IMG/VR virus record: IMGVR_UViG_651053023_000012
Location: 1 to 14,727 of that record
Source: a virus
Taxonomy: Duplodnaviria; Heunggongvirae; Uroviricota; Caudoviricetes
Reading direction: 5' to 3' (one strand)
Length of the DNA stretch: 14,727 nt
The notes beneath the pieces were generated by a model. It did no database searches. It was not told the DNA's origin and saw only the letters and a list, made by a program, of their open reading frames with translations. The translations under genes were made by a program, and so were the position numbers. This document shows, piece after piece, positions 4,672-4,981 of the stretch. Numbering within the stretch: the first letter of the stretch is position 1; each line of letters starts with the position of its first letter.

Positions 4672-4746
4672 TGGAGCGGGTAGCGGGAATCGAACCCGCA
4701 TCATCAGCTTGGAAGGCTGAGGTAATAGCCATTATACGATACCCGC
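4672..4746 (-). tRNA. tRNA-Gly (anticodon UCC), 75 nt with encoded CCA.
   Basis: Manual fold of GCGGGTATCGTATAATGGCTATTACCTCAGCCTTCCAAGCTGATGATGCGGGTTCGATTCCCGCTACCCGCTCCA. It has a 7-bp acceptor stem, an anticodon stem TCAGC/GCTGA with loop CTTCCAA, and a T-arm GCGGG-TTCGATT-CCCGC. It resembles phage-type tRNA-Gly. Confidence 0.8.
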
Positions 4747-4749
4747 ATA

Positions 4750-4825
4750 TGGTGCCGACTACCGGAATCGAACTGGTGACCTACTGATTACAAGTCAGTT
4801 GCTCTACCTACTGAGCTAAGTCGGC
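4750..4825 (-). tRNA. tRNA-Thr (anticodon UGU), 76 nt with encoded CCA.
   Basis: Manual fold of GCCGACTTAGCTCAGTAGGTAGAGCAACTGACTTGTAATCAGTAGGTCACCAGTTCGATTCCGGTAGTCGGCACCA. It has canonical U8, a D-stem GCTC/GAGC, an anticodon stem ACTGA/TCAGT with loop CTTGTAA, and one mismatch in the T-stem. Confidence 0.8.
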
Positions 4826-4827
4826 AC

Positions 4828-4904
4828 TGGACCGCCACCGAGGACTCGAACCTCGCACACTCAACTTAAAGGGTTAACACTCTTTCTTGGTGAACTGGTG
4901 GCGG
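4828..4904 (-). tRNA. Non-canonical tRNA-like element (possible degenerate tRNA or pseudo-tRNA); the apparent anticodon is UUU with C33.
   Basis: Perfect 7-bp acceptor stem (CCGCCAC/GTGGCGG), discriminator U, CCA, and a canonical T-arm (CGAGG-TTCGAGT-CCTCG). The D-arm lacks GG and pairs only with two G-U wobbles. The anticodon stem TTAAC/GTTGA has loop CCTTTAA. Confidence 0.35.
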
Positions 4905-4905
4905 T

Positions 4906-4981
4906 TGGTGGCCCTTGCTGGATTCGAACCAGCGACCTGGCGATTATGAGTCGCTCGCTCTCACCACTGAGCTAAAGGGCC
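4906..4981 (-). tRNA. tRNA-Ile2 type (anticodon CAU, ileX/ileZ-like, lysidine-dependent); elongator tRNA-Met is not fully excluded.
   Basis: GGCCCTTTAGCTCAGTGGTGAGAGCGAGCGACTCATAATCGCCAGGTCGCTGGTTCGAATCCAGCAAGGGCCACCA. The loop is CTCATAA, and overall it is close to E. coli ileX as recalled (GGCCCCTTAGCTCAGTGGTTAGAGCAGGCGACTCATAATCGC...). Confidence 0.8.

Follow-up and report, generated by a model that had tools for sequence, protein, structure and literature searches.

A late-region tRNA cassette in a defective lambdoid prophage of pig Escherichia coli as a probable source of minor tRNAs

Islands of tRNA genes situated behind the antiterminator gene Q of lambdoid prophages have been familiar since the first genomes of Shiga toxin (Stx) phages. 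What such an island supplies, and to whom, is the question raised by a locus in IMG/VR record IMGVR_UViG_651053023_000012, positions 1–14,727 of which were analysed as one stretch of 14,727 nucleotides (nt), called the window below. Its minus strand contains at 4672–4981 a compact cassette of four tRNA-type genes. Three of them are intact tRNA genes and one is a decayed tRNA-like gene, and they belong to a defective lambda-like prophage of pig E. coli. We consider it probable that the main role of this late-region cassette is an extra supply of minor tRNAs.

The genes are arranged head-to-tail, each with its CCA end encoded:

4672–4746, minus strand: tRNA-Gly (UCC); ARAGORN, Rfam RF00005 65.6 bits
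4750–4825, minus strand: tRNA-Thr (UGU); ARAGORN, Rfam RF00005 73.8 bits
4828–4904, minus strand: tRNA-like gene with an argN-family cloverleaf (slot 2 below); Rfam 29.3 bits, no ARAGORN call
4906–4981, minus strand: tRNA-Ile2 (CAU, ileZ type); ARAGORN, Rfam RF00005 72.6 bits

Spacers of 1 nt (4905, Ile2/slot 2), 2 nt (4826–4827, slot 2/Thr) and 3 nt (4747–4749, Thr/Gly) separate them. Both the coordinates and the spacers obtained with ARAGORN and Rfam coincide exactly with those of the initial annotation, which had described four tRNA-type genes lying 1–3 nt apart on the minus strand. The Gly, Thr and CAU genes, whose E-values of 1e-12 to 1e-15 lie far beyond chance (the gathering score of RF00005, the tRNA family, is 29 bits), are canonical bacterial elongator tRNAs by covariance score and ARAGORN call alike. 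The check by a tRNA finder proposed together with that annotation thus bore out these three genes, including their anticodons UCC, UGU and CAU, and returned no call for slot 2. In genomes of pig enterotoxigenic E. coli (ETEC) carrying the identical sequence, RefSeq entries annotated with the Prokaryotic Genome Annotation Pipeline (PGAP) name tRNA-Ile, tRNA-Thr and tRNA-Gly and leave slot 2 unannotated. Mechanically derived open reading frames (ORFs) over the cassette, at 4502–4732 (minus), 4599–4787 (plus) and 4915–5097 (plus), have neither annotation nor homology support and were discarded as spurious. Weak Rfam matches at 4815–4915 (SNORD56, mascRNA, sR55, CRISPR-DR10) score far below their thresholds, cover parts of the tRNA fold and were regarded as chance.

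The CAU gene was labelled tRNA-Met by ARAGORN, and this label was rejected. Identity to ileZ of an Stx2a phage is 75/76 and to ileX of K-12 67/76, versus 55/77 to the elongator genes metT/metU and 48/77 to the initiator gene metZ. The acceptor stem, GGCCCUU/AAGGGCC, keeps C4-G69 and C5-G68, which we take to be the determinants by which TilS separates tRNA-Ile2 from tRNA-Met; the sole difference from ileX in this stem is a compensatory replacement of C6-G67 by U6-A67. Because the gene is closer to ileZ and ileX than to metT and metZ and because PGAP names it tRNA-Ile, it is, judged by these identities, a tRNA-Ile2 of ileZ type and not a tRNA-Met, in agreement with the Ile2 reading proposed at the outset.

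The Thr and Gly genes have a different source. The former is identical to thrU of the K-12 host in 76 of 76 positions, and the latter matches K-12 glyT in 73 of 75, the difference being a compensatory change of C6-G67 to U6-A67. Both alleles of pair 6-67, together with the U·G intermediate, were found in other prophages, and prophage Gly copies show compensatory changes at C6-G67 (to U-A) and at G49-C65 (to A-U). At the Thr-Gly junction tyrU and a 116-nt spacer are deleted relative to the host, while the T after the CCA of thrU and the AT before glyT are kept, giving the spacer TAT. This spacer is present in 171 of 177 prophage Thr-Gly copies in IMG/VR, and we therefore conclude that there was a single capture-and-deletion event, which later spread. 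By these matches both genes derive from host thrU and glyT, from between which tyrU was cleanly removed.

Some thrU-derived copies outside the window carry changes in the anticodon arm. In five IMG/VR cassettes (L037 and four others) UGU is changed to UUU together with A26G, and ARAGORN calls two adjacent "Lys" genes there; in phage SerU-LTIIb (L213, 1122–1197) UGU is changed to UCU together with A31G, and the gene is annotated as tRNA-Arg. By their sequences, these copies with switched anticodons are cases of anticodon remoulding on a Thr scaffold. Six further copies (L057, L132, L133, L134, L145 and L146) are changed at positions 42–43, CAGU becoming CACC or CAUC, which cuts the anticodon stem to 3 base pairs (bp) and destroys the motif C40-A41-G42; changes of this kind are reported to give phage tRNA-Thr resistance to the nuclease Old of phage P2. 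L132 also carries an upstream tRNA-Asn(GUU), a secondary target of the PARIS defence system.

Of 5426 complete E. coli genomes, 878 (16%, about one in six) carry the fused Thr-Gly pair, and 69 have sequences of the window type (at least 80% coverage of a 451-nt query). Among 182 IMG/VR cassettes the commonest architecture is Ile2-Lys(UUU)-Thr-Gly (89), followed by Thr-Gly alone (48), Ile2-Arg(UCU)-Thr-Gly (14), Ile2-Lys-Arg(UCU) (12), Ile2-Lys-Lys-Gly with the Thr copy mutated to UUU (5) and the window type with slot 2 uncalled (3), the other 11 having rare forms; Asn(GUU) is carried by one cassette. Named temperate phages with the fused pair include 606R7, 689R5, 683R6, phi467, PhiR47_1, JLK-2012 and SerU-LTIIb, and the full four-gene cassette occurs in 606R7, 689R5 and PhiR47_1. 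The three canonical genes have nucleotide diversities of 0.004 (Ile2), 0.010 (Thr) and 0.012 (Gly), whereas the 60-nt flanks reach 0.27–0.33. On these values the cassette is a conserved module within highly variable flanks, and the compensatory stem changes together with the low diversity support the idea of selection acting on tRNA function.

Pattern scans revealed the following candidate transcription signals around the cassette:

5018–4991, minus strand: sigma-70 promoter-like site, TTGATT-16 nt-TATTAT
4409–4390, 4368–4351 and 4255–4240, minus strand: three putative terminator-like hairpins between the cassette and the first holin gene
6242–6214, minus strand: candidate late promoter just downstream of Q, TTGCAA-17 nt-TATATT
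6163–6140, minus strand: palindromic terminator just downstream of Q

The first of them stops 9 nt short of the 5' end of mature tRNA-Ile2. Comparison of 60 nt upstream of ileZ-type genes in 135 copies (35 distinct sequences) demonstrated that 33 of the 35 keep TATTAT at a fixed distance and TTGCAA, TTGCAG or TTGATT 16–17 nt further upstream; the same 33 have a 9-nt, mostly GC-rich stretch between the −10 element and the gene, and their spacer and distal sequences vary freely. Retention of the hexamers while the spacers differ is what a working sigma-70 promoter should show. The GC-rich discriminator resembles those of stable-RNA promoters. This promoter overlaps the 3' end of an AraC-type gene (5008–5721). 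Six terminator-like sites were found in the region, versus 2.1 expected. By analogy with lambda, the sites at 6242–6214 and 6163–6140 may be counterparts of pR' and tR', and together these signals fit the late-operon layout of a lambdoid phage.

Enrichment of AUA, ACA and GGA in the AT-rich cargo genes (morons) had been anticipated by the initial annotation. Codon usage was compared between 3165 codons of 20 genes from the prophage segment (19 annotated in the window, and the phosphatase in its intact allele from strain ETEC1716) and 14,202 codons of 49 host genes of ETEC1716, with frequencies given per 1000 codons:

AUA: prophage 12.6, host 4.5; odds ratio 2.8, p = 1e-6, rank 3 of 61
ACA: prophage 18.3, host 7.7; odds ratio 2.4, p = 3e-7, rank 5 of 61
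GGA: prophage 14.5, host 7.3; odds ratio 2.0, p = 3e-4, rank 8 of 61

The three codons together make up 79 per 1000 in the phosphatase-like gene, the richest one, and 71 in the second, a gene for 269 amino acids (aa), versus about 19.5 in the host, so that the anticipated enrichment of the morons was found; RusA and Q are also high, and the enrichment is therefore not confined to morons. In the intact relative PhiR47_1 (13,135 codons) AUA, ACA and GGA rank 8, 9 and 6, and the probability that three random codons all fall in the top 9 is 0.002; early and accessory genes there show more of this enrichment than do the lysis and structural genes. Moreover, seven of the eight most enriched codons of the window (AGG, AGA, AUA, CGA, ACA, CGG and GGA) are read by tRNAs of this cassette family, namely Ile2, Thr-UGU, Gly-UCC, Arg-UCU and Arg-UCG.

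Based on anatomy, conservation and codon statistics one can assume that the most likely role of the cassette is an extra supply of minor tRNAs for AUA, ACA/ACG and GGA/GGG. In the lysogen it would be transcribed as an autonomous unit from its own promoter, and after induction Q-modified polymerase starting from the late promoter would read through it. RNase P would cut the polycistronic transcript at each 5' end, exonucleases would trim the trailers of 1–3 nt, and host TilS would convert the Ile2 transcript to a reader of AUA. The net effect would be a larger amount of three minor tRNAs reading AUA, ACA (and ACG) and GGA (and GGG), and it is these codons that are over-represented 2 to 3 times in prophage genes, most of all in the AT-rich cargo. 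Since the promoter is its own and conserved, the cassette probably adds to the minor-tRNA pool of the lysogen and not only to that of the phage. As copies of host genes, Thr and Gly appear to add dosage rather than new decoding capacity.

Several points weigh against this assignment. The most enriched codons, AGG and AGA, have no cognate tRNA in the cassette of the window. In PhiR47_1 the lysis and structural genes are only weakly enriched in AUA and ACA (ranks 15 and 11), though late tRNAs should help these genes most. AAA, which ranks 21 in the window and 29 in PhiR47_1, shows no enrichment, and codon supply therefore fails to explain the slot-2 gene with anticodon UUU. Rare-codon enrichment is generic to horizontally acquired DNA of lower GC content, and to some degree the match is expected regardless of function. 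All that is said here about the function of the cassette we infer from sequence, and in a defective prophage a benefit for phage production is moot. Codon supply thus fits Ile2, Thr, Gly and the Arg variants and does not fit the UUU variant, and the codon match is consistency, not proof.

Slot 2 demands separate consideration. Its Rfam score is at the threshold (E = 8e-5) and was obtained solely when the stretch was searched alone; its fold energy has a z-score of −4.0 versus shuffled sequences. All 21 cloverleaf pairs form, giving four helices. Yet ARAGORN makes no call here, and the copy of the window is the only slot-2 variant that it rejects; the designation "tRNA-like" chosen in the initial annotation is therefore apt. 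The anticodon loop is CCUUUAA, with C33 and U34U35U36, the acceptor has C1-G72, U73 and CCA, and in place of the conserved core U8, G18-G19 and U33 the window copy has C8, A18-G19 and C33, the last of which is common to all relatives of the UUU type. It is identical in 68/77 positions to tRNA-Lys of PhiR47_1 and in 58/77 to argN, tRNA-Arg(UCG) of Stx phages, and its relatives are annotated as tRNA-Lys(UUU) in phages PhiR47_1 and 606R7 and in the PPompW prophages.

The variability of this gene was surveyed in 143 copies of the gene after ileZ, which fall into 21 sequence variants: two canonical tRNA-Arg(UCU) with loop CUUCUAA, one argN with loop CUUCGAA and 18 of the UUU type. Apart from two singletons, all of these 18 have the loop CCUUUAA, in which C replaces the almost universal U of position 33. 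ARAGORN accepts the commonest UUU form, which is named tRNA-Lys by PGAP in E. coli genomes, scores 40–44 bits in Rfam, similar to the 43 bits of argN, and occurs in 797 of 5426 complete E. coli genomes (about 15%). An exact-match scan of 185,579 species representatives, which diverged copies would escape, detected a 33-base slot-2 motif only in E. coli and Shigella flexneri. From the commonest form the window copy is separated by seven transitions: U8C, C11U, U15C, G18A, C25U, C28U and C63U. Those in stems (C11U, C25U, C28U, C63U) keep or restore pairing in all four cases, and the other three are at unpaired positions. Over the whole family 95.5% of cells are paired versus 29–53% in slid controls, the acceptor stem is 100% paired though six of its seven pairs vary, and compensatory changes occur at pairs 3-70 and 30-40. 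At the same time its diversity (pi = 0.039) is 4 to 9 times that of the neighbouring tRNAs, and there are degenerate lineages with a 1-nt deletion in the D arm (77-nt variants, PPompW type) or a 6-nt anticodon loop (L163). An A51·C63 mismatch in the T stem is present in 14 of 18 aligned slot-2 variants, bona fide argN among them; an A-U pair stands there in the window copy and in the Arg(UCU) forms. The mismatch seems to be tolerated or ancestral in this family.

Taken together, these features suggest that slot 2 of the window is a structurally intact but probably non-decoding tRNA-like RNA. A possible reason for its survival is that, as a spacer of tRNA shape, it allows RNase P to release the 3' end of tRNA-Ile2; with a single nucleotide between Ile2 and slot 2, an RNase P cut at the 5' end of slot 2 would be the obvious route to this release, which could explain why the helices were kept despite drift of the core. 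The second slot looks like an evolutionary playground, occupied depending on the lineage by UCG, UCU, UUU with C33 or debris.

The surroundings of the cassette are those of a lambdoid prophage, with the following genes and RNAs in the window:

6247–6915, minus strand: antiterminator Q (Pfam PF06323, E = 2e-91; PGAP)
5838–6001, minus strand: TrmB-like gene, frameshifted, between Q and the tRNAs
5008–5721, minus strand: AraC-family helix-turn-helix gene, 42% GC, between Q and the tRNAs (Pfam HTH_AraC 2e-12, HTH_18 2e-10; PGAP)
3821–4213, minus strand: holin
3556–3831, minus strand: holin (Pfam Phage_holin_8 and Phage_holin_3_7 for the two holins)
3176–3553, minus strand: M15 peptidase endolysin (Pfam Peptidase_M15_4)
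2530–3104, plus strand: lipopolysaccharide core heptose(II)-phosphate phosphatase by PGAP, cargo, 38% GC (Pfam His_Phos_1)
10157–10966, plus strand: 269-aa ORF, 35% GC, on the strand opposite to its neighbours; no Pfam match
9377–9701, minus strand: hok/sok type I toxin-antitoxin, with sok RNA at 9527–9701 (Rfam 110 bits) and hokD at 9377–9532
41–239, minus strand: match to Rfam family IS009 ("sRNA", 230 bits), wholly within the tail-fibre assembly gene (1–582)

The Pfam matches to Q, the holins and the endolysin thus place the cassette where it had been placed by inspection, between Q and the lysis genes, and downstream of Q the same layout is found in Stx2a_F349, PPompW, PhiR47_1 and 606R7. 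Most relatives have short ORFs or nothing where the window has the AraC-type and TrmB-like genes. The 269-aa ORF is a typical moron. At 99.9–100% identity the window matches a segment of the chromosome in porcine ETEC and edema-disease E. coli (ETEC1716, O141:H4 P13-6, O139:H1 strains and K_EC180), which in ETEC1716 is a lambdoid prophage between yodB and tRNA-Ser(serU)/mtfA. Beyond the endolysin, all that is left of the ETEC1716 prophage is a cargo gene, fragments of a DUF1441 gene and of a tail-tip gene, and a gene for tail-fibre assembly, and in this copy (99.9% identical) the integrase and the TrmB-like gene are frameshifted. The prophage is therefore serU-integrated, truncated and defective, its structural genes having been deleted. 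The phosphatase cargo gene after the endolysin is intact in ETEC1716 and frameshifted in the window near codon 116. A direct repeat of 76 bp (1839–1914 and 3323–3398, plus strand; about 98.7% identity) joins the endolysin gene region to position 1839, the start of homology to other prophages of pig ETEC, and is probably the trace of the recombination or deletion by which the structural genes were lost. Beside hok/sok, ETEC1716 carries an inserted IS481 that is missing from the window. The IS009 family is probably the conserved coding sequence of prophage tfa genes and not an independent RNA.

Such a state of the prophage raises the possibility that the cassette is a functionless relic, carried along in decaying DNA and redundant with ileX/ileY, thrU and glyT of the host. 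Truncation after the endolysin and the frameshifts in integrase (ETEC1716), TrmB and the phosphatase moron (window) agree with this, as do the decay of slot 2 and the fact that Thr is, and Gly nearly is, a host gene. We nevertheless regard it as unlikely, as the three canonical genes are free of disabling changes, the flanks are far less conserved than the cassette over many mosaic contexts, stem changes are compensatory, promoter hexamers are conserved and 16% of complete E. coli genomes still carry the cassette.

Somewhat less credible still is a role in counter-defence, in which the tRNAs would replace or buffer host tRNAs cut by the immune nucleases of competing prophages and defence islands (PARIS AriB, P2 Old, PrrC), with slot 2 as a cleavage-resistant surrogate of tRNA-Lys built on an Arg scaffold. 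AriB cuts host tRNA-Lys(UUU) and tRNA-Thr(UGU) between C40 and A41 of U36AAUCA41 and, less efficiently, tRNA-Asn(GUU); a change of U39 abolishes the cleavage, and variant tRNAs of phage T5 neutralise AriB (PMC12409363). Old, which causes interference between P2 and lambda, cuts tRNA-ThrU at CNG motifs of the anticodon stem; cells are rescued by phage tRNA-Thr(UGU) variants, including that of lambdoid phage 21, while additional host tRNA-ThrU protects little or not at all (PMC12445682). The targets of AriB (Lys(UUU) and Thr(UGU)) and of Old (ThrU) thus recur in the commonest cassette, Ile2-Lys(UUU)-Thr(UGU)-Gly, with its 89 of 182 occurrences. Slot 2 has G39-U40-U41 instead of U39-C40-A41, and its C33 adjoins the PrrC cut site; codon supply leaves the UUU tRNA unexplained as AAA is not enriched; a few prophage Thr copies altered at 42–43 have lost C40-A41-G42, and one cassette bears Asn(GUU).

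The copy in the window itself, however, speaks against this. Its Thr gene, being thrU in all 76 positions, has C28-U29-G30, C40-A41-G42 and U36AAUCA41 all intact, and extra tRNA-ThrU barely protects against Old (PMC12445682). Neither PMC12409363 nor PMC12445682 reports Gly(UCC) or Ile2 among the targets of these nucleases. Slot 2 lacks U8, G18 and U33, is the sole variant that ARAGORN rejects, belongs to a gene whose diversity is 4 to 9 times that of the genes beside it and which is degenerate in some lineages, and carries U73 and not A73. Lysyl-tRNA synthetase uses A73, and we know of no report elsewhere in which Gly(UCC) or Ile2 are nuclease targets either. A counter-defence role for the window Thr gene was therefore rejected: identical to thrU, which fails to rescue cells from Old toxicity, it is no nuclease-resistant variant and at best adds dosage. 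Judged by the changes at 42–43, nuclease resistance may have evolved in some prophage Thr lineages, not in that of the window. One may speculate further that the widespread slot 2, far from being an argN in decay, is a remoulded tRNA under selection for decoding AAA once anticodon nucleases such as AriB or PrrC have destroyed tRNA-Lys(UUU), and that together with the Thr gene it forms a counter-defence module; we give this version little credence. If it were true, anticodon switching would also explain the thrU copies with UUU or UCU in other prophages, and slot 2 of the window would be a recently disabled member. Although the copy in the window looks non-resistant, the Lys/Thr content of the commonest cassette offers a connection between prophage tRNA islands and warfare among phages that can be tested at low cost.

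Finally, the view that these tRNA genes serve for attachment or recombination (att-type fragments) and not for expression, suggested by the frequent integration of phages into tRNA genes with carriage of tRNA fragments and by the 76 and 73 bases that Thr and Gly share with chromosomal genes, is extremely improbable and was rejected, as all the genes are full length with both 5' and 3' halves intact, lie in the late region behind a promoter and not beside the integrase, and the actual prophage junction is at tRNA-Ser (serU), about 16 kb away.

We thus return to minor-tRNA supply as the probable main role. The cassette is of an already known, ordinary kind, its exact sequence being in RefSeq with three of four genes annotated. 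Points of modest interest are the host-derived Thr-Gly pair, the conserved promoter and the fast-evolving second slot with its C33-UUU loop; the first of them implies a single clean capture of thrU and glyT with loss of tyrU, which spread to about 16% of complete E. coli genomes. This follow-up is a tidy piece of natural history, possibly useful for researchers of phage tRNAs, and of little weight as a discovery.

Comparison with known systems defines the place of the cassette. With the host operon thrU-tyrU-glyT-thrT(-tufB) it has in common the Thr gene (76/76), the Gly gene (73/75) and the bases flanking the deletion. Unlike that operon, it is devoid of tyrU, the 116-nt spacer, thrT and tufB, and its Thr-Gly pair stands behind ileZ and slot 2 under a phage-borne promoter. 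The nuclease-resistant tRNAs of T5 and phage 21 resemble it in that anticodons UUU and UGU are carried by a phage, in the case of phage 21 likewise a lambdoid one. They differ from host tRNAs at the cleavage site, whereas Thr of the window equals host thrU; slot 2 does differ at 39–41, but is unusual and possibly non-functional.

The ileZ-argN-argO island of Stx phages (Stx2a_F349, AP012530) is closer. It occupies the same slot, between Q and the late cargo and lysis genes, has identical promoter hexamers before ileZ, and its first two genes are homologous to those of the window (75/76 and 58/77); the C1-G72 acceptor and T arm of argN are also found in slot 2. The loop of gene 2 is CCUUUAA (UUU, C33) in the window versus CUUCGAA (UCG) in the island, argO (UCU) is replaced by the host-derived pair Thr(UGU)-Gly(UCC), and no stx genes follow. 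The trio ileZ, argN (UCG) and argO (UCU) is thus not present in the window, where the argN homologue has UUU and C33 and argO is absent. This corresponds to the original reading of the locus as the ileZ-argN-argO position occupied by another gene set, and the cassette is a variant of that island, not the classical trio.

The closest relatives are PhiR47_1, vB_EcoM-606R7, vB_EcoS-689R5 and hundreds of E. coli prophages, which have the same four genes in the same order, with the same spacers and in the same context. The commonest form of slot 2 differs from that of the window by the seven transitions, which is why the latter is called by neither ARAGORN nor PGAP. With 95–96% identity over 327 nt, the cassette of PhiR47_1, 606R7 and 689R5 is the family to which the cassette of the window belongs.

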